The notes below the pieces were generated by a model that saw only the letters and a program-made list of their open reading frames with translations, did not search any database and had not been told where the DNA came from. Both the position numbers and the translations under genes were made by a program. A DNA stretch of 64,000 nucleotides from a virus. Taxonomy: Duplodnaviria; Caudoviricetes. Positions 449-51,732 of the stretch are shown here, in pieces. Every line of letters starts with the position of its first letter. Position 1 is the first letter of the stretch. The stretch lies in IMG/VR virus record IMGVR_UViG_3300038345_000144; one strand, given 5' to 3'.

Positions 449-2030
449 CTTCGGTTTCCTCCATACTGACTATTCTCTCCAATTGCTCGATAATATCAGC
501 ATTTTCATCAATAAGATGCCATCTCTGATACCACTGAACCTGTGAAATAATATTATCAATATTACCGAAAGCGGCAATAACAGGAGCATATTTAGTGAGG
601 TTGCCTACAACGAGGTCGTTAATAGGGTTGTCCTGAACTGTACCGTCAGGCAATACCATCTTGTTATAAACTCTCGTAAGGACAATGCTACACTTGTCGA
701 GTATCTTGTTCTTTTCGTTAAATACATTGTTTCTACGAGTACCACAGAGGGTAGTAAGTTGCTTAACAACGGACTTAACAGAGTTGATGGAAGGATTACA
801 AGTAAGGATAATCCTATCCGCTAACTTATAAAGCATTGAAATAGGTGCTTTTCCGAGGTAGTCGATACCACTGTCAAAGAACACTACATCATAGTTAGAG
901 AGTAACTGCTTGAATACATCAATCCAGAAAGTTGTGTTTTCTGTGATTTCAGGAATGTCCTGTGCAGGAGCAAGGTAGAAATCAATGTTTGATGCGAAGT
1001 GGTCACTTCTAACCCTTACATTGTTGAGGTAAGAGAAATCTCTGTTACCACCAATATAGTTCTTATAGTAGTCCTGAAGTGTCGGACCTAACTTGTTGAT
1101 AGTAATACCAATCTGACCGTCGATAATATCGAAGTCAGCCAATGCCACCTTCTGATTAGGGTGAGTCTTTGCATAGTAATATGCACTAATAAGAGCCGTA
1201 AATGTCTTACCAGTACCACCCTTTGAAGAACCAAAGAGAATAACCTTTGCGGAGCCATTCTTATTGGCATAACTCTTCGTACCATCATCCTGCAACATAG
1301 CGTCAAGTTTAACCTTGATTTTTGTTACATCGACAGGCTTATCAACCGCCATCAGGCTTTCAGTCTTCTGCAAAGCAGGTTGCTGATTGAACATTGATGT
1401 TGACTGCGGAGCAGGTGCGGGAGCAACTGGAGCCTGTGGAGCAGGTTGAGGTATAAACTGCTGTGGATAAGAAGGCTGGTAGTACGGATTGACCTGCGGT
1501 TGAGGTGCAGGTTGAGGCTGTGGCTGATAATTGCCAGGTCTCATTTCTGGCTGAACAACAGGCTGTTGAACAGGCTGTACTACTGGCTCTACCCTCGGCT
1601 GAACTACTGGCTCTGGAACAATCGGAGCCTGCTGAACAACAGGTTCAGGTTCGGGTTCAGGCTCTACCACTGGCTCTGGTTCAGGAGTAACTTCCTGAAT
1701 AACAGGTTCAGGGATAGGTTCTGGCTCTGGCATAGGCTCTGGTTCAGGCTGTGAAGCCTCGATAACCTTTACATTCTCGATAGGGAATGATGGTTCGGGT
1801 ACATCACTAAACCTGTAATAAACAACCAACACATTCGCCGCTTCATACTGCTTGAGTCCCTCATAGACATCAGGAGTAATTACGGAGACATCATACCAAA
1901 TGCCTTCATCGACCTCGATACCATCATCAGATGTAGCCCTTGCGATGAACTCATCTGCGGTCCACTGGTCTTTTTGAAAACCGTCCAATTCAGACGGAAC
2001 TCTTTTGTCGTTGGTTACTACAATAAACAT
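441..2030 (-). CDS. MinD/ParA/CpaE-family ATPase with long Pro/Gln/Glu-rich N-terminal linker
   Basis: Deviant Walker [24 protein letters not shown]; EP/QP low-complexity tract; SD upstream. Confidence 0.8.
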
Positions 2031-2099
2031 TGTGTAATTTTCCTCCTATTGAATAATTTGCTTTCAAATTACTTAACTGTAACATTACATTACTATTAC

Positions 2100-2118
2100 A
2101 ATTAAATAGTCGTTCATT
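2100..2118 (-). promoter_or_regulatory. conserved intergenic motif (plus strand AATTAAATAGTCGTTCATT)
   Basis: Identical 19-mer at 15447-15465; variants at 30204, 34003, 26772. Confidence 0.6.
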
Positions 2119-2143
2119 TTAACTTGTAAGTAAAATCTTATAC

Positions 2144-4942
2144 TTACGCCTTTGGCTTCCTAACCATAGCAATTTCTCTGGAAGCCCAGTTCTTTGCTCT
2201 ATTGATATTGTTCTTGACATTACGGAAGTCTTGTTTAGCCTCTTCATACTTGAACGCCTGAATAGTCAAGCAAGCCAAGATATAAACAAAGCCTAATACA
2301 AAGCCCTTATCGACAAGAGCCATATAGAGCATTACCATAATAACTAACTTAATATTAGCCAAAACATAGTCAATCAAGCACTTTCCAATCTTACCAGTAA
2401 ACGCTGATAAGCCCTTCTGCTCCTTGAACAATTCGAGAATGGTAAACCATATCATCTGAACCATTGTAAGTAACAAAAGGAAGAAGTTTTTGATTTTTGC
2501 CCATATTGTAGGCAACATAATGAATAACATTAAGGCATTACAGAGCATTATGTTACCCTCTTTGAAGTAGTGGGTATTAGGAATAGATGCGTCTGTATAG
2601 TTATTAGCAATTGTACCGTCTGGGTACTGTTGAGGGGATATATTGAATTGAGCGTCAATAACCCTGTAAGTATCTGCCATAAGGGTACTGTCATAAGCGG
2701 TTGTAGTAGCGTTAGGGAAGTAGATCGGCTGTGATAAGTCAAATTCACCTGCCTCCGATACATTCTTTACCGAGTTATCAATATGGTACTTACTACCACA
2801 AGACATAAGGTAAGCCGCCCAGTTTCTAACCTCTTTACCACCACCAATAGGTACATAGACATCACCTGTGTACTTGGCACTATCAAAGAAAGGATTTCCT
2901 GATGTGTCAGCAGGGTCGATTGTCTGGTGGCTTTGAGGCATTACGGATTGTCCATCCTGTAAAGTTGCATAGTGCGTATAGAGTTTCTCATAGTCTAATC
3001 CGCTAAACTGACCTCTACACCACGGCTGGAATATGGCTGTACGCCACAAACAAGCGTGAACTTGCATATTTTCGTCGCTACAATGGATAACTTCGTCATC
3101 TTCGCAAGTCTTGTTAAGTGCATAGTTAAATAACTGGTCAATTGCGGTCAAACCACGATAAATTGTATTATTCATAACGGAAGGGTTATTTACCGATAAG
3201 AATAACAAGCCTAATGCTATGACACCAATGATAAATCGTTCAATAACATCTTTAGGCGAACTTCCTGTACCTTTTGAATATTGAAAAACTTTCTTGACCA
3301 AAGAGAAGATAAAGGCTACCATAGCGAACGCTAAAATAAGATTTACAGCAATTTTAATGGTATTCCAAGCGTCTGTGGTCTCAAATTTAGTCAATAATAT
3401 TGTAAAGTGAGCAGGAATTTCAGTACCTATCAATAGGGATATAAGTGCTACGATATACTTGGCAAAGGTCATATTGATTTCGCCTGCCTCATATGTATAA
3501 CCCATAAAAGCACTTACACCTACAAGGTCTGTTCTTGGGTCCTGAAATCCGTCGTTGCGTTCTGAAGAAGAAAGCACTGTTGGACGACCCTCGTAAACCT
3601 CACAAGACAAATAGTTTGTACTGGAGTACATAATGGTCTCCAAAACGCCTAATTTATTCAATCTGCGTTCTGTCCAAGCAGACCAAATGTGGTCAGCAAG
3701 TTTTGGAGAGTAGGTCTTTTCTCCTAAATACCTATACCAGTGTAGATTTTCACCAAATAACTCAAATAGGCAATATTCTGGTGAATTATTACCATTTCCC
3801 ATTACTTGGTTAACATACCCCGTTAGTACATTAACATTTTTGGCGTTTTGTGAGGATTGTAATGAAGAGTCAGCAATAGTAAGATTACCATTTTCATCCT
3901 CTACATATACATTTGTGGACTCAAAGATAAATCCTGAATTTTGAGGGTAAATAAGGTTTTTACCAATATAGTAATAGAATATTGAACGGTCAATAATATC
4001 CTCACGAACAAACGGAGGCAATACCATATCAGTATCAGCCAAAACATCATAAGCATAGTTGAAATCATATAAAGAGCCTGCAAACTCATTATAGATTGCC
4101 TGTGCCGCTTCCTGTCTTGGAGCGTAATAATCCTCATTTGTGTTTCCCTCAAAGTTTAAGGAGAAATCTTTTGTAATTTCATTAAGGTCAGTGGAGTCCT
4201 TCCACTTTTCTTTGTATTCTTCCCAATAAGAAAATCCACTATCACCGTCTTCGGACATAGTAAACATAATCTGGCTTTCTAAAACCCACCACTCGCAATT
4301 ATGCTTATTACACCAGTCCAAAAGACCAACGGCTCTGTCAGCAGTCCATTGTGCCAAACCAATACCACAATATCCTTGACCTCCGACTGAAAAGTAGAAG
4401 GCTTCGGCTATACCATTGTCAGTAAAGTCAACACCTAAACGGGCTTGCTCAATACCCCACTGGTTCTGATTAGCGTCATCGCCCCAACAATGCCAACCAT
4501 CGCAAAGACAAGCAACTGTCATAGCATCGTGACATTCGATATATTTAGCGGAACAATTAGCAATATAATCATTAACAGCGTCAAAAGTATCATCATATTG
4601 ACTACCTACCGTAGCAGTAGGTACACCGTCAGTTACGGTAATTCTTGGATTTGCCTCGACGAGTTCTGGCTTGAATTCACATTCACATTTCCAGCATCCC
4701 ATTACACCTGCCGCTTCATATTCAGTCAAGCCATATGTTCTCAAAATACTCCAGATTTTGTACTTATTTTGCTCAACTGGACCAGTAAAGTTGCCTTGTA
4801 CGGTAGCCTTCTTGATTTCTGTTCCATCATAGTAGTCGTCGGCATAAACCGTTACGGCGGGAGAGGCGAAACTTGCCGTCATAGTGATTGAAATGACCGT
4901 TACAGCCAATAATGAAACAATTTTTCGAAATAACTTACTCAT
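2144..4942 (-). CDS. Signal peptide + phage-tail-lysozyme-like domain fused to a polytopic membrane domain (putative conjugation protein)
   Basis: GLTEYEAAGVMG..E, GIGLAQWT, FSLNFEG motifs of the Phage_lysozyme2-like family; about 7 hydrophobic segments in the C-terminal half. Confidence 0.65.
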   Translation of the reverse strand: MSKLFRKIVSLLAVTVISITMTASFASPAVTVYADDYYDGTEIKKATVQGNFTGPVEQNKYKIWSILRTYGLTEYEAAGVMGCWKCECEFKPELVEANPRITVTDGVPTATVGSQYDDTFDAVNDYIANCSAKYIECHDAMTVACLCDGWHCWGDDANQNQWGIEQARLGVDFTDNGIAEAFYFSVGGQGYCGIGLAQWTADRAVGLLDWCNKHNCEWWVLESQIMFTMSEDGDSGFSYWEEYKEKWKDSTDLNEITKDFSLNFEGNTNEDYYAPRQEAAQAIYNEFAGSLYDFNYAYDVLADTDMVLPPFVREDIIDRSIFYYYIGKNLIYPQNSGFIFESTNVYVEDENGNLTIADSSLQSSQNAKNVNVLTGYVNQVMGNGNNSPEYCLFELFGENLHWYRYLGEKTYSPKLADHIWSAWTERRLNKLGVLETIMYSSTNYLSCEVYEGRPTVLSSSERNDGFQDPRTDLVGVSAFMGYTYEAGEINMTFAKYIVALISLLIGTEIPAHFTILLTKFETTDAWNTIKIAVNLILAFAMVAFIFSLVKKVFQYSKGTGSSPKDVIERFIIGVIALGLLFLSVNNPSVMNNTIYRGLTAIDQLFNYALNKTCEDDEVIHCSDENMQVHACLWRTAIFQPWCRGQFSGLDYEKLYTHYATLQDGQSVMPQSHQTIDPADTSGNPFFDSAKYTGDVYVPIGGGKEVRNWAAYLMSCGSKYHIDNSVKNVSEAGEFDLSQPIYFPNATTTAYDSTLMADTYRVIDAQFNISPQQYPDGTIANNYTDASIPNTHYFKEGNIMLCNALMLFIMLPTIWAKIKNFFLLLLTMVQMIWFTILELFKEQKGLSAFTGKIGKCLIDYVLANIKLVIMVMLYMALVDKGFVLGFVYILACLTIQAFKYEEAKQDFRNVKNNINRAKNWASREIAMVRKPKA

Positions 4943-15534: not shown

Positions 15535-16308
15535 TTATAGTCGTTCAAATACTTTACCAAGACTATCGTGAAATACTAAATCGGCTTTGTTATCAAAGTC
15601 AGTTTTCTGATTATTGATGATTACCAAATGTTTTCCGTGAAATAGCGGAACAAGATTATTAGCAGGAGCGACCTTTAATGATGTGCCTCCGACAATCAAC
15701 AGGTCTGCTTTCTTTACTTCATCTACGGCTGACCTAAATGCTGGTGGCAAGAACTCTCCATATAAACTTATCTTTGGTCTGATAAATGCTTTATCGTGAG
15801 GACAATACTCATTCTCTTCATTATCGCAAGCGTGACATAGCGGTATCTCATCTGGACAAGTAAAGATGTATTCAGCAGGATATTCTCTACCACAACGCCT
15901 ACAATAACATACTTGTCCTGTACCGTGTATCTCTAATACTTTTGTACTGCCTGCCTTCTGGTGTAAACCGTCAAGGTTTTGAGTTACAACGGTAAGATTG
16001 TGAGTTTTCTCTAATTCTGCAAGTTTTTTATGCGTTATATTAGGTTCTATGCCCTTCAGATTAAATTTCTGGCGATAATATTCGTAAAAGACCTTTGTAT
16101 CATCATATAAGCAATAACTACTTAACAGGTATTCTGGTTCATACTTCTCAAACTGTACTTCGTGTTGATTATATAGACCATTTTTACTTCTGAAATCTGG
16201 AACACCACTCTCGGTTGATACTCCAGCACCGCCAAAGAATACTATTTTCTGGGCTTCATCAATATACTGTTGAAGTTGCTTGATTTTCGCATTAAAAGTC
16301 TGGAACAT
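15535..16308 (-). CDS. cobB: Sir2/CobB NAD-dependent protein deacylase
   Basis: GAGVSTESGVPDFRS, TQNLDGLH, HG, CxxC..CxxC, GTSL. Confidence 0.93.
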   Translation of the reverse strand: MFQTFNAKIKQLQQYIDEAQKIVFFGGAGVSTESGVPDFRSKNGLYNQHEVQFEKYEPEYLLSSYCLYDDTKVFYEYYRQKFNLKGIEPNITHKKLAELEKTHNLTVVTQNLDGLHQKAGSTKVLEIHGTGQVCYCRRCGREYPAEYIFTCPDEIPLCHACDNEENEYCPHDKAFIRPKISLYGEFLPPAFRSAVDEVKKADLLIVGGTSLKVAPANNLVPLFHGKHLVIINNQKTDFDNKADLVFHDSLGKVFERL

Positions 16309-16332: not shown

Positions 16333-16413
16333 TAAAAACCCCCATTACGAGGAATAATGTGCATAACGATTGCAGTCTCCTACAACGAACGAGAAACCTC
16401 CATATCTGGAGAA
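16333..16413 (-). CRISPR. CRISPR-like mini-array C: 2 degenerate repeats, 1 spacer
   Basis: Plus strand TAAAAACCCCCATTACGAGGAA (16333-16354) and GAGAAACCTCCATATCTGGAGAA (16391-16413), 36 nt apart; same repeat family as arrays A and B. Confidence 0.75.
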
Positions 16414-32737: not shown

Positions 32738-32928
32738 TAAAAACCCCCGTATGTACGGGGAAAATTCATAAACATTTAGTCACCGAATTCCCAATTTCGA
32801 GAAACCTCCGATAACGGAGAAGAGCAACACTGCAATTGCAAGCGTATATAGTGAGTGAAAAACCTCCGTACACGGAGAAAAGGGACCCAGAAATCAAGAA
32901 GATAAGAAAAACCTCCACAACTGGAGAA
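32738..32928 (-). CRISPR. CRISPR-like mini-array A: 4 degenerate repeats, 3 spacers (36, 35, 26 nt)
   Basis: Repeats at 32738-32762, 32799-32821, 32857-32879, 32906-32928; minus-strand consensus TTCTCC-N6-GGAGGTTTTTC; unique spacers. Confidence 0.8.
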
Positions 32929-32935
32929 CAATAGA

Positions 32936-33163
32936 TTAGCCGTTAAGTTCAGCCCACTTTGCCATCATTTCGTCCCTGCGACCATCTGGATAGTTTGATG
33001 TTCCATAATAGAGATTGCCGTCAGCGTCACGATTATCAACTGTTGCTACGACAACATCTGCCTGCAACTTACTGCCATTCTCATTGGGCTTATATGTAGC
33101 ACATCCAATCGCACCTAAAGCAACGATGATAAGGATAATGATTGATATGATTGCCTTCTTCAT
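32936..33163 (-). CDS. small lipoprotein between arrays A and B
   Basis: Signal peptide with AIGC lipobox; SD and promoter upstream. Confidence 0.65.
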   Translation of the reverse strand: MKKAIISIIILIIVALGAIGCATYKPNENGSKLQADVVVATVDNRDADGNLYYGTSNYPDGRRDEMMAKWAELNG

Positions 33164-33699: not shown

Positions 33700-33960
33700 T
33701 AACAATCTCCGTACACGGAGAACTGGAGCAATAGCCTTGAAAAGAGTGCTCTTGCCGACTGAAAAACCTCCTATACAGGAGAAACATACATATACCTTAA
33801 TGGTCTTATTCAGAACGCTGGAAAAACCTCCAAACTGGAGAATAAACCCGAAGTCACTGACCACATATTTAGAGTCTTGAAAAACCCCCATAACGAGGAA
33901 CCATTGTTAATCCAACAACTGACCGTGTTGTTCTTGAGAAACCTCACAAGGCTGTGAGAA
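33700..33960 (-). CRISPR. CRISPR-like mini-array B: 5 degenerate repeats, 4 spacers (38, 37, 36, 35 nt)
   Basis: Repeats at 33700-33722, 33761-33783, 33821-33842, 33879-33900, 33936-33960; period 57-61. Confidence 0.85.
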
Positions 33961-34049
33961 TGTTCTGATGAAATTCAAAACAATCAATGTTCATCTATCA
34001 TTATTAAATAGCCGTTAATAGAAAAGAGGCACTTGTGTACCTCTTTTGA

Positions 34050-35769: not shown

Positions 35770-36912
35770 TTAGATAACTGGATAATCTTTTGCTTCCTGC
35801 TTGGTCATAAAGAAATGAATTCCTGTTGAACATTCATTCCATCGGTTCGTATTAAAGTCGGGTTCACCAAACGCCAAACTTTTAACGGTTTTTCCAACAG
35901 TATAGATAAAGGTATCGTTATACCAAGCCCTAACCTTAATATCAGCAGGCAATTTGTTATCATTCATATCATAGAACCCAAGCACCTTAACAGCACTGGC
36001 TCTGCATTTTCTTCCCGTACCCGAACTTCTCTTGGCATTGGCGGGAATTTGAAGTTTAACTAATACTCCCTCTTTAGTGTGGCTATCCTTAACCCAGATT
36101 GCTTTTTTCCAAGCGACAAAAGCACCCTCTTCAGGACATATCATATGGTACTTAATATTAGTAACATTGTCTCCAATGCAAGCATTATCAAAGTTAGCAT
36201 CTTCCATATGTCCACAATCTATGTCAGCAAAAAACGCTTTAGTTAAGTTAGCACTGAAGAATTGTGAGGAAGTGATTATTGTCTTTCTAAATTGTGCTTC
36301 ACTTAAATTTGCCTCTATAAAATGACAACTTTTTAGGTTAGCATAATTAAAGACCGCCTTACTGCAATTAGCCTGATAGAATGAACAACATTCAAACACG
36401 GTCTGTTCCCGTGAAGAAATAAAGCAATCTATTGACATCATATTTGCCCCGCTAAATTTGACATCAAAAAGGTGGCATCCCCAAAATTTGGTAAAACCAC
36501 AAAAAGCATAGTTGAATTCACACAACCATATTTTAGTGGCTTCAAAGTGAGCGTCTGTAAATATAGCATATTTGAATATACACTTGTTAATCACACATTC
36601 TTCAAATGACGCACAGGTAAACATACAGCCATAAAACCAGCAAGAGTCATTAAAAACTGTCTGAACAAATCTTGCTTTATTAAAAATTACCTGGTCAAGT
36701 TTACAGTGAATAAATTTACAGTTCTCAAACAAACTGTAACTTAAATCTCGATAGTCTCTAAAATCAATATGCTCAAACACTTGATTTTTGAATGTGGCTC
36801 TTTTACCACCTTTTTCGTTATTCAACCACTTCTTATGGTTTTTAAGCACGGTGGCTAATGATTTCTTATCAATCGTTATATCTTCTGGTATATAATAAAA
36901 ATCATCACTCAT
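35770..36912 (-). CDS. pentapeptide repeat protein with C-terminal DUF5758-like domain
   Basis: Long pentapeptide tract; CPEEGAFVAWKK, RKCRAS, ECSTGIHFF. Confidence 0.88.
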   Translation of the reverse strand: MSDDFYYIPEDITIDKKSLATVLKNHKKWLNNEKGGKRATFKNQVFEHIDFRDYRDLSYSLFENCKFIHCKLDQVIFNKARFVQTVFNDSCWFYGCMFTCASFEECVINKCIFKYAIFTDAHFEATKIWLCEFNYAFCGFTKFWGCHLFDVKFSGANMMSIDCFISSREQTVFECCSFYQANCSKAVFNYANLKSCHFIEANLSEAQFRKTIITSSQFFSANLTKAFFADIDCGHMEDANFDNACIGDNVTNIKYHMICPEEGAFVAWKKAIWVKDSHTKEGVLVKLQIPANAKRSSGTGRKCRASAVKVLGFYDMNDNKLPADIKVRAWYNDTFIYTVGKTVKSLAFGEPDFNTNRWNECSTGIHFFMTKQEAKDYPVI

Positions 36913-43189: not shown

Positions 43190-43274
43190 TTTATTTCTGC
43201 TCCTTTTCTACAACAATTTATCATAGAATATCACATTAACTAAATATTTGGCAAGAGTAGAACAAAAAATATTT

Positions 43275-43505
43275 CGGACAAAAATACGGACATCACACGG
43301 ACAGTATTCGGACAGACACGGACAATTCGGACAGGAGCCGACAAATCACTTAAAGTGTCACTTAAAACTTCATATTTGATGTTTTATTTCACAAGGGGTT
43401 TGAACGGGTACTTTAAGTAGCACTTAAAAGTCACATCTGGGTCGCATATCGGTATTATTTCAGTCGTATATCGGTCAAATCGGTTGTATTTCGGTCATAT
43501 CGGTC
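43275..43505. repeat. composite repeat region: 7 x C(G/C)GACA, CACTTAAA repeats, 6 x TC(G/A)GT, 9-12-bp period
   Basis: CGGACA at 43275, 43287, 43298, 43309, 43319, 43328 (variant 43338); TCGGT at 43449, 43471, 43480, 43491, 43500 (variant 43460). Confidence 0.8.
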
Positions 43506-43555
43506 AAAAATAAGCACCCGTTTCATTAAAAACGAGTGCTTTTGCTTATGAGTTA

Positions 43556-44383
43556 TTATGAGTGATATTTTTCCCATATTTCAGGGGACATCCACGGCTG
43601 ATGCAACTGTGGGTTGGCACTTATGATTACTACTAATCCGTTTTCAACCTTGATGTAACAGCCCCATAAAGTACCGCCCCATTCTTGATTTTCGGTTACA
43701 TCTCTTATGTATTCTTGAATGTTGTTATACTTAAAAGGACTTTCATATAGTTTGTTATTCCCATCAAGATAGTTGACATTAGGGTATTCCTGTCCAAATA
43801 CTTCTGCATCACTAAACACTTCTATATTAGGAGCAAATGACAAATGATAATTACTAATAATAGGATATGAATAAATCACATCATAATCACCCCAAAGATA
43901 GTAATATCCTTTGGCTTGTTTTTGTAAAAATCCGTTATCTCCACAGTTAGATAACCAATCATTTCCTTCATATACAACATATTTTTCATTATCAGTATCA
44001 GTAGAAAAATATATAGTATCTCCAACTTGTAAATTGTTATATTCTTCTTCGGATAATCGCCAATACCCACTAACACTAAACATAGCACCTGAACAGTCCT
44101 CATCAAAAGAAGAAATATTAGCAAAATACTCCCCATCAGGAAGAACTCCGTTAAACTCTATCTGTTGTAGCGTTAATACGGGGTTATGCTCGGTTGTTTC
44201 TGTTGTAGTAGTTTCTTCTGTTGAGGTTTCCGTTGTTTCTTCGTCCATAGGCATAGGCTCTGTGGTTATTTCAGAAGATACTTCAATAGTAGTTTCTTCC
44301 GTAGTGGTTTCAACTGGAGCATTAGCCATACAACCCGTTAAAAGTGTAGCCGTGAGAAGTATAGGTAATACTTTGCGTTTCAT
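43556..44383 (-). CDS. lipoprotein with Thr/Glu-rich linker
   Basis: LTGC lipobox. Confidence 0.7.
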   Translation of the reverse strand: MKRKVLPILLTATLLTGCMANAPVETTTEETTIEVSSEITTEPMPMDEETTETSTEETTTTETTEHNPVLTLQQIEFNGVLPDGEYFANISSFDEDCSGAMFSVSGYWRLSEEEYNNLQVGDTIYFSTDTDNEKYVVYEGNDWLSNCGDNGFLQKQAKGYYYLWGDYDVIYSYPIISNYHLSFAPNIEVFSDAEVFGQEYPNVNYLDGNNKLYESPFKYNNIQEYIRDVTENQEWGGTLWGCYIKVENGLVVIISANPQLHQPWMSPEIWEKYHS

Positions 44384-45719
44384 TATGTTTTCCCCTTGAT
44401 ATATAAACTATAAAAGGTTCTAAAATCCCCCTTAAAAAAGGCATTTGCTTTGTGCATTAACTCTAAATAATTTGTTTTCACATATTCATATCGAGATGGT
44501 TCATTAGTAAGTGCTGTAAACTTGGTATCAGCTAATAACAGGGCTTTTAATTGATTACGGTTTTCTTCAAGTTCTTTTTGTCTTTGTTCCCGCTTTTGTT
44601 GGTAGTCTAATTCTTCTTGTTCATTAAGATATTCACCAATTTCATCATTAACTGTTTCCAAATCTTCGTCTATATATTCAACACCTACTAATATGCCATC
44701 AATAGAACAAAGTAAGATAACATCCCAAATCATTCCATTATATTCAGCATATTTTTCGATTTCGGCACTATAAATAGTATCAGTTATCATAAACAGCGTT
44801 TTAGTGTTTTGGTTTGCTATGTCAATGAAATCATCCAGTTCCATTTTGGTATAAACAACTCTATCCATCAGGGCGGTATTATATTCAGTAATCTCAATAA
44901 TGTTTCCCTTAAATTTGGTTTGTAATAGTTCTAAATCAGGTATTTTCATTATTATTTCCTCCTGTATTTTCTTCTGTTTGTGGATAGGCTTTCAAAACAC
45001 CATATTCAAGTCCATCTCGTATATCGTGAACATCAGCAAAGAAACTTAAAATGGTATATGCAAAAAGCGTGTATAAATAGCACACAATTACATATATAAT
45101 AGGCAACGCCACCATAAGCACTAATGAAAGTGCCGCCATTGAAGGCTGTCGGTGTTGAGCGTAATATACCAAACGGGATATTTCATAGATTATAGAACCT
45201 AATGCTCCAAATGAGGCATTAACAACAAACAATGCTTTTAATACCTTTTGTAGTTTTTCTGACGGGTTATTAAATAAATTATCTAACATCGTGTTTCTCC
45301 TTCTTCATTTATTTTTCCTTTGGTTTAGACATCTCCCGCAATTTCATCTCCAAGCAGAATAATAGACATTCTATTTCTATTCTATAATCATAGTAATAAT
45401 CTGTCTCACGGGTAACTTCATCTATGATGTCTTGAGTTGGTCCATTTTTTGTACCGCAGGGCTTTCCACCAACCATAAGCGTAAATGGTGGGGTCATACC
45501 TGGTCCTGATAGCCACGGTTTGCCATTATATTCCCTAATTTGATACCACTCATCACCTATTTTAATGTGGTGCAAACAGGCAAACTCAAGGTTAGTCTGC
45601 TTAATATGAGCCTCATAACTGTCAAATTCCTTTATCTTTTCAATTAAAAGGTCTTTGAGTTCGGTATGTTCCATCTGTGAGTATTTATCAAGTAATTTCT
45701 GTATTTCAGTTCTGTTCAT
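44383..45719 (-). CDS. three hypothetical ORFs (44383-44949, 44936-45289 two-TM, 45309-45719)
   Basis: Packed ORFs with SDs. Confidence 0.55.
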
Positions 45720-46473: not shown

Positions 46474-47109
46474 TTAATCGCCCCCGAAAATCATATTCTC
46501 ATCATTATTATCTGGGGGAACATCAGTATCTTCATTAAGTCCGATTGTACCACTCATTGGGGTAAGAGGCTGAAAACTACATAAAGTAGTATTACCCAGT
46601 ATCATACCTGTAAAATCAGTTTGATGAATAATCGGGTGAACAATCCAGTTTCTACCGTCGCCTGCATACACATTACACAATTTTGTACCAATCATATTAT
46701 TGTGTATAAATGTAGTATGCTCCATAACTGCATCAGTAAAATCGGCACTTGTAAGACAACCACACATAAAATAAACCCTATCTAATCGGCTATGATGAAA
46801 CGTAGCGTGGTTAAAATCAGCCCAAGTACAGTCGCAACCCTCAATTACTGAATAATTAAGATTGCACTTCTCAAATTTAGCATAGGCTAAAATAGTATCT
46901 TCAAAAGTAGCCCCGTGTAAATCACAATCAGTAAAATTGGAACGGGATATATCACAATGTTTGAAGGTAATTTGAGATAGATTTCTTCCTGAAAAGTCCA
47001 GTTCATACATAACCTCATTTTCAAGAACTACCTTATTACCCTCGGTCCATTCGGATTTAGTCCATACTTCGTGTGCATCTAAAATAGTGTTTAATTCTTC
47101 TTGGGTCAT
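46474..47109 (-). CDS. pentapeptide repeat protein
   Basis: EL..IL..H..W N-terminus and pentapeptide tract. Confidence 0.85.
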   Translation of the reverse strand: MTQEELNTILDAHEVWTKSEWTEGNKVVLENEVMYELDFSGRNLSQITFKHCDISRSNFTDCDLHGATFEDTILAYAKFEKCNLNYSVIEGCDCTWADFNHATFHHSRLDRVYFMCGCLTSADFTDAVMEHTTFIHNNMIGTKLCNVYAGDGRNWIVHPIIHQTDFTGMILGNTTLCSFQPLTPMSGTIGLNEDTDVPPDNNDENMIFGGD

Positions 47110-50598: not shown

Positions 50599-51732
50599 TT
50601 AACTCCTGTGTAATTCTTTATAATCCCAATCCTTTACAACACCTTGAGCCTGTAAATTGGGGTCAAGTATAAGCCTGTTAATTTCTGCACCAATATTGTT
50701 ATCATCGAGATTATCGACAACCCTTGAGAGAATATCTCTAATCTGCGGTGTAAATAACATATACTGGGTATCTACAAGATATTTACCATCTTGTTTGAGC
50801 ATCTTCTGTGAAAGAACGATATTTAACTGCAAAATAAGGTCAAGAGCAAGGTTTTTATCGTTATCCAAGTGATACAAAAGACGGTTCATAGTACCCGCTA
50901 CATCTGCGGCGTGGAAGGTCGTTGATGTGATGTGACCTGTTCTTGCCGCCTCAATCGCCGCACAGATAACCTCTTTATCACGACACTCACCGACGATAAT
51001 CATATTAGGGTGTTCACGCAAGGAAGCCTTAATACCTAATGCGAAAGTCCTGAAATCTTTACCCAACTCTTTCTGTAAAATTCTAACATTTGAAGTTGAG
51101 TTAAACAGGTTCTCGATAGGGTCTTCCAGTGTGATAATAACCTTGTTGTCCAATATTTCGCCAGGTTTTGTAAAGGTGTTGATACACGCCGCCATTGTGG
51201 TAGATTTACCTGAACCCGTAGGACCAGTTTCATAGCAAATACCACTTGGTTGTGAATAAGCCCATCTTAACGCCTCTACACACTTCGGGTTATAGTTGAT
51301 GGTCTCAAAAGTAGGCTGTTCTGGTTTAATCATACGGAAAGTCGCTATTGGCTTTTCCTCTGAAAATCCGAAAGATACACGATAACGATAGTGTATTAAC
51401 TTTTCTGCATTAGGACTATCATCAGGAACTCTAACAGCAACAGAAGTATCGAGCAAACGGTTCTGGATATATTCAGTCTGCAACTCGTTACTTATATATG
51501 TTTCGTAAAAATCACCCCAGAGCAGTTTATCAATAGCCTTGCACGGAACCTTATAAATCTTACCAAATCGTGAGATATAAGGTGTATCATCGACTTTCAA
51601 ATAGACATCAGAGCATTTATGTTCTGTGGCAAAGACGAGTATCTCCTCAACTGTGTGTGGACCAGTAAATGCCTGAATATCTGCATCATCTGGGAGTTGA
51701 GGATTACCGCCTCCATTTAAGTTAATTTTCAT
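50599..51732 (-). CDS. PilT-like type II/IV secretion ATPase
   Basis: SDVYL, TGPTGSGKSTT, LEDPIE, LREHP..I.VGE.RD, ARTGH..TFH. Confidence 0.88.
   Translation of the reverse strand: MKINLNGGGNPQLPDDADIQAFTGPHTVEEILVFATEHKCSDVYLKVDDTPYISRFGKIYKVPCKAIDKLLWGDFYETYISNELQTEYIQNRLLDTSVAVRVPDDSPNAEKLIHYRYRVSFGFSEEKPIATFRMIKPEQPTFETINYNPKCVEALRWAYSQPSGICYETGPTGSGKSTTMAACINTFTKPGEILDNKVIITLEDPIENLFNSTSNVRILQKELGKDFRTFALGIKASLREHPNMIIVGECRDKEVICAAIEAARTGHITSTTFHAADVAGTMNRLLYHLDNDKNLALDLILQLNIVLSQKMLKQDGKYLVDTQYMLFTPQIRDILSRVVDNLDDNNIGAEINRLILDPNLQAQGVVKDWDYKELHRS

Follow-up and report, generated by a model that had tools for sequence, protein, structure and literature searches.

The spacer of a small hairpin array (array C) in a 64,000-nt stretch of viral DNA, hereafter the window, is supported by sequence comparison as a copy of a chromosomal dnaA segment from a family of rumen Clostridia, and it suggests targeting of the host chromosome by phage RNA guides. 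It is fairly probable, although well short of certain, that this spacer, C1, belongs to a CRISPR-like mini-array as a guide-type spacer and functions as a guide, and that the array is carried by a huge rumen phage or by a mobile element of similar size. Array C is located between a gene for a 122-amino acid protein and a gene for a Sir2-like protein, and two further arrays, A and B, are present elsewhere in the window. The features to which the text refers are as follows:

16391 to 16413, minus strand: first hairpin repeat of array C (TTCTCCAGATATGGAGGTTTCTC), made up of TT, a 5-bp stem, a 4-nt loop and the handle GTTTCTC
16355 to 16390, minus strand: spacer C1, 36 nt (G-TTCGTTGTAGGAGACTGCAATCGTTATGCACAT-TA), in which nt 2-34 read as a sense copy of dnaA codons
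16333 to 16354, minus strand: terminal hairpin of array C (TTCCTCGTAATGGGGGTTTTTA), with a CCUC/GGGG stem that needs a G-U pair, followed by TTTTTATTT
32738 to 32928, minus strand: array A, four hairpins and three spacers (26, 35 and 35 nt)
33701 to 33961, minus strand: array B, five hairpins and four spacers
33935 to 33901, minus strand: spacer B0, dnaK match
33878 to 33843, minus strand: spacer B1, tRNA-Tyr gene match
33820 to 33784, minus strand: spacer B2, tentative atpD match
33760 to 33723, minus strand: spacer B3, ychF P-loop match

Five copies of the hairpin unit TTCTCC-N6-GGAGGTTTYTC are present in the window, compared with 0.02 expected from shuffled sequences. When looser variants were counted, 11 hairpin units were found, confined to three intergenic loci (two in array C, four in A and five in B). 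Together the arrays contain eight unique spacers of 26-38 nt, with a period of 58-61 nt and one of 49 nt. The repeats are kept in structure and degenerate in sequence: ∼23 nt are recognizable, the 5' part is not conserved, stems and loops vary, and the sequence common to all is TTCTCC..GGAGGTTTYTC only. Pairing of the stems, which are weak (-4 to -11 kcal/mol), is preserved through compensatory and G-U changes, and a short T-run follows each hairpin. Two of the units (CCUC...GGGG) fold as minus-strand RNA only, which implies that the likely transcript is the gene-sense strand; almost all ORFs in the window lie on the minus strand. The base that follows the handle GTTTYTC mismatches the target in five of five cases and thus acts like an eighth handle base.

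Scans of the window against Rfam and for tRNAs returned no matches, indicating that the arrays belong to no known RNA family and that spacer B1 is not a tRNA gene, and no additional copy of any spacer was found within the 64-kb window. The unit periods are not divisible by three, and a coding role for the arrays was rejected on this ground. Generic transcription terminators were also rejected, the unit being confined to three loci and the other terminators of the window differing in sequence. Contigs assembled from RNA libraries gave scattered, low-depth cover of the region, which cannot show transcription, RNA ends or processing; one such contig runs from a small lipoprotein-like ORF (MKKAIISIIILIIVALGAIGC...), situated at 32938-33162 between arrays A and B, into part of array A.

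Scans for the array pattern yielded one candidate of the same repeat family, an eight-unit array on a JGI contig (L008). The remaining candidates proved to be unrelated tandem repeats (L001, L005, L006 and L009) or a chance pair (L007). Small genes encoding proteins of 126, 90, 230, 168, 125 and 107+ amino acids directly follow the array of L008 (positions 677-3317), and none of these proteins gave a Pfam match. The 230-amino acid protein has one near-identical homologue only and is DUF2225-like by language-model features.

Frame 2 of the minus strand of spacer C1 (G-TTCGTTGTAGGAGACTGCAATCGTTATGCACAT-TA) translates as FVVGDCNRYAH, and the earlier note had read this peptide from 16355-16390, between two hairpin repeats, exactly as it was found here. 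No match to the exact peptide was obtained in a degenerate scan of one genome from each of 185,579 species, and the exact 32-mer of the spacer was absent from IMG/VR. The looser motif F[VI]xGDCNxxA gave at least 120 matches in the same set of species genomes; all 120 matches listed were dnaA genes, with the Walker A sequence GLGKTHL ∼25 residues downstream of the motif, and most were from Bacteroidota, with the sequence FIEGDCNRLAR. A Clostridiales MAG from water-buffalo rumen (L050) carries FVVGDCNRFAH, one residue removed from the spacer reading, in a dnaA gene that is followed by dnaN and is thus the chromosomal initiator gene.

The DnaA protein of this MAG was used as a query against 143 genomes of its family (the family of MAG RGIG7976). 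FVVGDCNRFAH was present in all of the best 30 dnaA genes retrieved, and the best-matching of these genes (L136, genome G031) was identical to the spacer bases TTC...CAT at 30 of 33 nt. Homology to dnaA was bounded by spacer bases 2-34; nt 1, nt 35-36 and the hairpins showed none. BLAST searches with array C against the 143 family genomes gave E values of 1e-6 to 6.5e-4 per genome in ten genomes, all at the dnaA site, with background matches beginning at E ∼0.006, and the 11 best matches all fell in dnaA. Similarly, in an order-level sample of 301 genomes, each of the eight significant matches lay inside the RGIG7976 family and none outside it. The sequence agreement therefore indicates that the DnaA reading of spacer C1 is not due to chance.

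The earlier note had proposed that the spacer was captured from a dnaA gene, with Clostridia as the guessed host. The guess agrees with the family in which the best dnaA matches occur. Capture from dnaA is backed by the chromosomal copy described above but not by an exact or near-perfect protospacer, the exact peptide being found in none of the 185,579 species. The lack of an exact protospacer implies either that the precise host is unsampled or that the spacer has drifted. An origin in a DnaA-like gene of the element itself, which the note had named as the contrary case, was not seen: no DnaA-like gene is present in the window, and no DnaA-family gene (PF00308) is present in the complete 332-kb genome of a relative (G001).

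Inspection of the other spacers revealed further matches to genes of the same kind. Spacer B3 matches the P-loop of ychF (MKLGIVGLPNVGKSTLFNAI) at 28 of 30 nt, and spacer B1 matches the anticodon arm and variable arm of the tRNA-Tyr gene at 27 of 30 nt, with at least 25 genomes listed at 90% identity. Spacer B0 finds the same dnaK site, PEGN|RTTPSVVGFTK, in 30 of 30 dnaK genes (27-28 of 35 nt), and spacer 2 of the L008 array matches purL (FKN|ETHNHPTEIEPF) at 32 of 36 nt. The match of spacer B2 to atpD (GVLDKTIMVFGQ; 26 of 37 nt, one genome) is tentative, and spacers A1-A3 gave no convincing target, their matches being weak and not including the seed. Relative to minus-strand RNA, all six identified targets (dnaA, dnaK, ychF, tRNA-Tyr, purL and, tentatively, atpD) are in the sense orientation. 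Every spacer to which a target could be assigned by sequence appears to match a host housekeeping gene and none an invader. Spacer B1 has CTA in place of the GTA anticodon of the gene and so superficially resembles an amber suppressor tRNA; this reading was rejected because the anticodon stem is broken and the change falls at guide position 6.

The trinucleotide AAC or AAT stands immediately before the first matched base in 30/30 dnaA, 30/30 dnaK, 6/6 tRNA-Tyr, 2/2 ychF and 12/12 purL genes, so that all five well-matched targets, with matched lengths of 30-33 nt, are flanked by AAY. An AAN-type I-E motif ahead of the protospacer had been predicted in the earlier note together with a near-perfect dnaA match. 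The motif is borne out, since an AAC or AAT codon precedes the site in all 30 dnaA genes; the match itself is looser than envisaged, with three mismatches in 33 nt at best. Ranked by conservation, the dnaA target is number 81 of 1,319 windows of the gene and second among the 50 that follow a conserved AA. The highest-ranked of these 50 are all in frame, which explains the in-frame Asn codon. The rank could reflect either a selective preference for conserved sites or the detectability of conserved targets alone, and conserved targets may be the sole detectable ones if the true host is unsampled.

Mismatches within positions 1-30 of the best matches, counted from the first matched base, were distributed as follows:

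dnaA: positions 12, 21 and 26
dnaK: positions 11, 12, 24 and 27
tRNA-Tyr: positions 6, 12 and 16
ychF: positions 6 and 24
purL: positions 6, 12, 15 and 24

Class 1 complexes such as Cascade flip out every sixth base of the guide and require a PAM-proximal seed. Ten of the 16 mismatches over the five best matches are at positions 6, 12 or 24, all multiples of six; no mismatch occurs at positions 1-5 or 7-10 in any of the five. However, the coding guides all begin at a codon start, so that multiples of six are also wobble sites and the periodicity is confounded; among wobble mismatches alone, eight are at sixth positions versus three elsewhere (p ∼0.1). The tRNA-Tyr gene is the only target free of this confound, and two of its three mismatches are at sixth positions. 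The six-base periodicity is thus a hint.

Comparison of strains revealed both retention and turnover of spacers. Two ENA contigs that are ∼1.4% diverged from the window retain spacer C1 with 0-3 substitutions; in one of them AAT is changed to ACC, which breaks the conserved Asn codon, and the last base is also changed. In run X3, array C is without any listed change, and replacement or divergence is seen at spacers A3 and B2. In three runs the missing segment is precisely 32857-32905, corresponding to one hairpin plus spacer A1, so that array A differs between strains by gain or loss of exactly one repeat-spacer unit.

The phage was detected in 16 metagenome studies of the bovine and sheep gut, and the RGIG7976 family of rumen Clostridia is likely to be its host lineage. 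A lipoprotein gene at 43556-44383 (signal LLTATLLTGCM) is 70-88% identical at the nucleotide level to chromosomal loci of several genomes in this putative host family. The same match takes in a non-coding stretch downstream of the gene (43270-43550), a candidate conserved element that could be regulatory or encode a small RNA, and the shared locus as a whole (43270-44397) looks like the product of recent gene exchange. When 20 kb of the phage was used as a query, the family genomes showed gene homology and no spacer-like matches among the best two candidates per genome.

Searches of ∼36 window ORFs against Pfam and PHROGs returned no Cas families. Type I-E systems are also rare in the putative host family, Cas6e (PF08798) being found in one of the 143 genomes. 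A single type I-E array was found in the family, in genome G127; it has 26 repeats of 28 nt at a 61-nt period, and in its repeat, GTGTT-CCCCGC-GTAT-GCGGGG-GTGATCC, TT is followed by a 6-bp stem with a 4-nt loop and then by a handle of 7 nt. The spacers of this array did not match the window, and no repeat-like multi-copy matches to the phage repeats were obtained in the 143 family genomes.

The phage units resemble type I-E arrays (that of G127 and those of E. coli Cascade) in layout: TT comes first, then a stem of 5-6 bp that encloses a 4-nt loop, then a 3' handle of 7-8 nt, which would supply the 5' handle of the crRNA. The likeness extends to guides of ∼32-33 nt, a 5' AAN-type motif on the guide-identical strand, an intact seed and, as a hint, mismatches at every sixth base. 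In contrast, the phage handle is GTTTTTC instead of the GTGATCC of G127, the phage repeats differ from one another, and the arrays are tiny (one to four spacers) and scattered between operons. Furthermore, neither adjacent cas genes nor a leader was found at the phage arrays, and the identified targets are host housekeeping genes.

For CRISPR loci of huge phages, spacers directed against transcription and translation genes of the host have been reported (Al-Shayeb et al. 2020, PMC7162821). Those loci resemble the present arrays in the large phage carrier, in spacers that match presumed core machinery of the host and in the proposed disabling or re-regulation of the host. They differ in having regular, identical repeats and often Cas genes (for example, Cas14 or CasPhi); the arrays described here have degenerate repeats, no Cas nearby, many dispersed loci and a uniformly sense orientation. 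Viral mini-arrays and single repeat units (PMC6858448, PMC11656645) are likewise cas-less, with one or two spacers and a Cas complex presumed to act in trans, but they carry the exact repeats of the host and spacers directed against related viruses, whereas the present repeats are diverged and the target is the host chromosome. The RliB-CRISPR of Listeria (PMC3886909) is an orphan array that is active without adjacent cas genes, with its RNA processed by a non-Cas enzyme; it is, however, chromosomal and no weapon of a phage, its repeats are conventional and its spacers match phages. No description was found in the literature searched of dispersed, structure-conserved degenerate repeats with sense, motif-flanked copies of host housekeeping genes.

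These features can be accommodated by the following model, in which the processing of the RNA, its effector and the consequence for the host (silencing or cutting) are predicted, and spacer origin, motif, orientation, repeat geometry and strain conservation are directly supported by the sequence comparisons. The arrays would be transcribed within minus-strand operon transcripts, and each unit would give rise to an RNA built like a type I-E crRNA, with a 7-8-nt 5' handle (GUUUYUC+N), a guide of ∼32-33 nt and a hairpin at the 3' end. The guide would direct a class 1, Cascade-like complex, encoded by either host or phage, to bind the dnaA template strand beside AAY, with the same binding at dnaK, ychF, purL and the tRNA-Tyr gene. 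The predicted outcome is a transcription or replication roadblock, amounting to a CRISPRi-like shut-off of the host. A guide of sense sequence is unable to base-pair with dnaA mRNA, so that only DNA targeting, of the template strand, would be possible, with the motif on the upstream side. The uniform sense orientation accordingly fits a polar roadblock better than plain cutting. Repression by Cascade inside genes shows strong strand asymmetry in both E. coli (I-E) and Haloferax (I-B), although strand naming leaves the polarity unfixed (PMC5109708, PMC7064716).

The dnaA-guide interpretation of the earlier note holds up in its chromosomal dnaA origin, its AAN motif and its link to Clostridia, and falls short at the exact protospacer and the Cas effector, neither of which was found; the silencing or cutting of dnaA and the addiction device that the note also put forward are possibilities. 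Three mismatches in the 33 nt of the best dnaA match, the absence of Cas from the ∼36 window ORFs and the single Cas6e among 143 genomes all speak against a guide function. The effector may lie elsewhere in the phage genome, outside the window. The repeats are identical neither to each other nor to any host repeat, which makes loading onto a host complex uncertain. The most elaborate form of the model, which we regard as possible and rather doubtful, is a natural multiplex CRISPRi shut-off in which guides, structure-kept repeats and a Cascade-like complex, perhaps new and phage-encoded, would act on template strands of dnaA, dnaK, ychF, purL, atpD and tRNA-Tyr from dispersed, cas-less arrays. 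Here, the start of the guides after an in-frame Asn codon would place the unpaired sixth positions on wobble sites, and the guide would thereby tolerate synonymous variation across the host family.

Other explanations for the arrays deserve consideration. They could be Racr-like anti-CRISPR RNA decoys, or orphan arrays in which the hairpins are what matters, with spacers as by-products that have no targeting role; host Cas1-Cas2 inserting host DNA during infection would then account for spacers that are host-derived and PAM-flanked. Inhibition of Cas complexes by single viral repeat units is on record (PMC11656645), no cas genes were found in the window, the degenerate repeats conserve structure rather than sequence, and host DNA would be the most abundant source of spacers in an infected cell. 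This combined proposal is nevertheless unlikely in our judgement. All six targets share one orientation, the seed positions are free of mismatches, and the strains compared have kept spacer C1. Near-maximally conserved sites, such as a dnaA site that ranks second of 50 AA-flanked windows, would be unexpected for by-products, although detection bias weakens this point. Active insertion would also copy the repeat exactly, yet the observed repeats are diverged.

That divergence, the T-run after each weak stem and the strain in which spacer C1 has three substitutions, one of them breaking the conserved Asn codon, would instead suit fossils of a once-active phage CRISPR locus, now surviving only as transcribed spacer DNA or weak tandem terminators, in which the dnaA fragment would no longer have a function. 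We give decay a lower probability still, as compensatory and G-U changes have kept the stems paired, the window's other terminators are of a different appearance, and both the AAY motif and the non-random mismatch pattern would be expected to decay. Least probable by a clear step, and improbable in absolute terms, is that the sense fragments are RNA mimics that decoy a host RNA-binding factor or nuclease, or spacers gained from RNA via reverse transcriptase. All targets are indeed sense copies of expressed genes, the tRNA included, but the tRNA-Tyr copy lacks anticodon-stem pairing and the anticodon base and would make a poor structural mimic, and a DNA-level AAY outside the copied segment is unexpected for mimics or RNA-derived fragments.

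If the guides are active as proposed for spacer C1, the arrays would represent a natural case of a virus with many RNA guides that disable or destroy host core genes, and the functions hit would include the start of replication, a chaperone, a translation GTPase, purine synthesis and a tRNA. CRISPR-type repeats would then be maintainable by structure alone and would be missed by standard array finders, and the implied effector, tolerant of variable repeats, would be of interest as a tool. The spacers also provide a direct host prediction for an uncultured rumen megaphage, and three concrete rules are open to test: the AAY motif, sense orientation throughout and codon phasing.

The window itself looks like a piece of a very large phage. 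PHROG and Pfam matches in it include SbcC/SbcD, RusA, an NAD-dependent ligase, an SNF2 helicase, a tail lysozyme, a Sir2-like protein and a non-specific endonuclease. Megablast with 20 kb and blastn with array A against GenBank phages returned nothing or chance matches only. The relative G001, from IMG/VR, is a complete 332-kb genome with terminal repeats that encodes a Sir2 protein 74% identical to that of the window; despite the presence of this neighbour, it contains no hairpin units. In the window, the Sir2-like NAD-dependent protein is encoded directly downstream of array C (15535-16308), with a non-specific DNA/RNA endonuclease (PF13930; 27779-28765) located beyond it, and both proteins are candidates for roles in host takeover or counter-defence. 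A T2SSE/PilB-type secretion ATPase (50599-51732) is encoded amid phage replication genes. Two pentapeptide-repeat proteins are also present (35770-36912 and 46474-47109), one of them as a DUF5758 fusion. DNA mimicry is common among pentapeptide proteins, and the two in the window could be anti-defence or gyrase-protecting factors.
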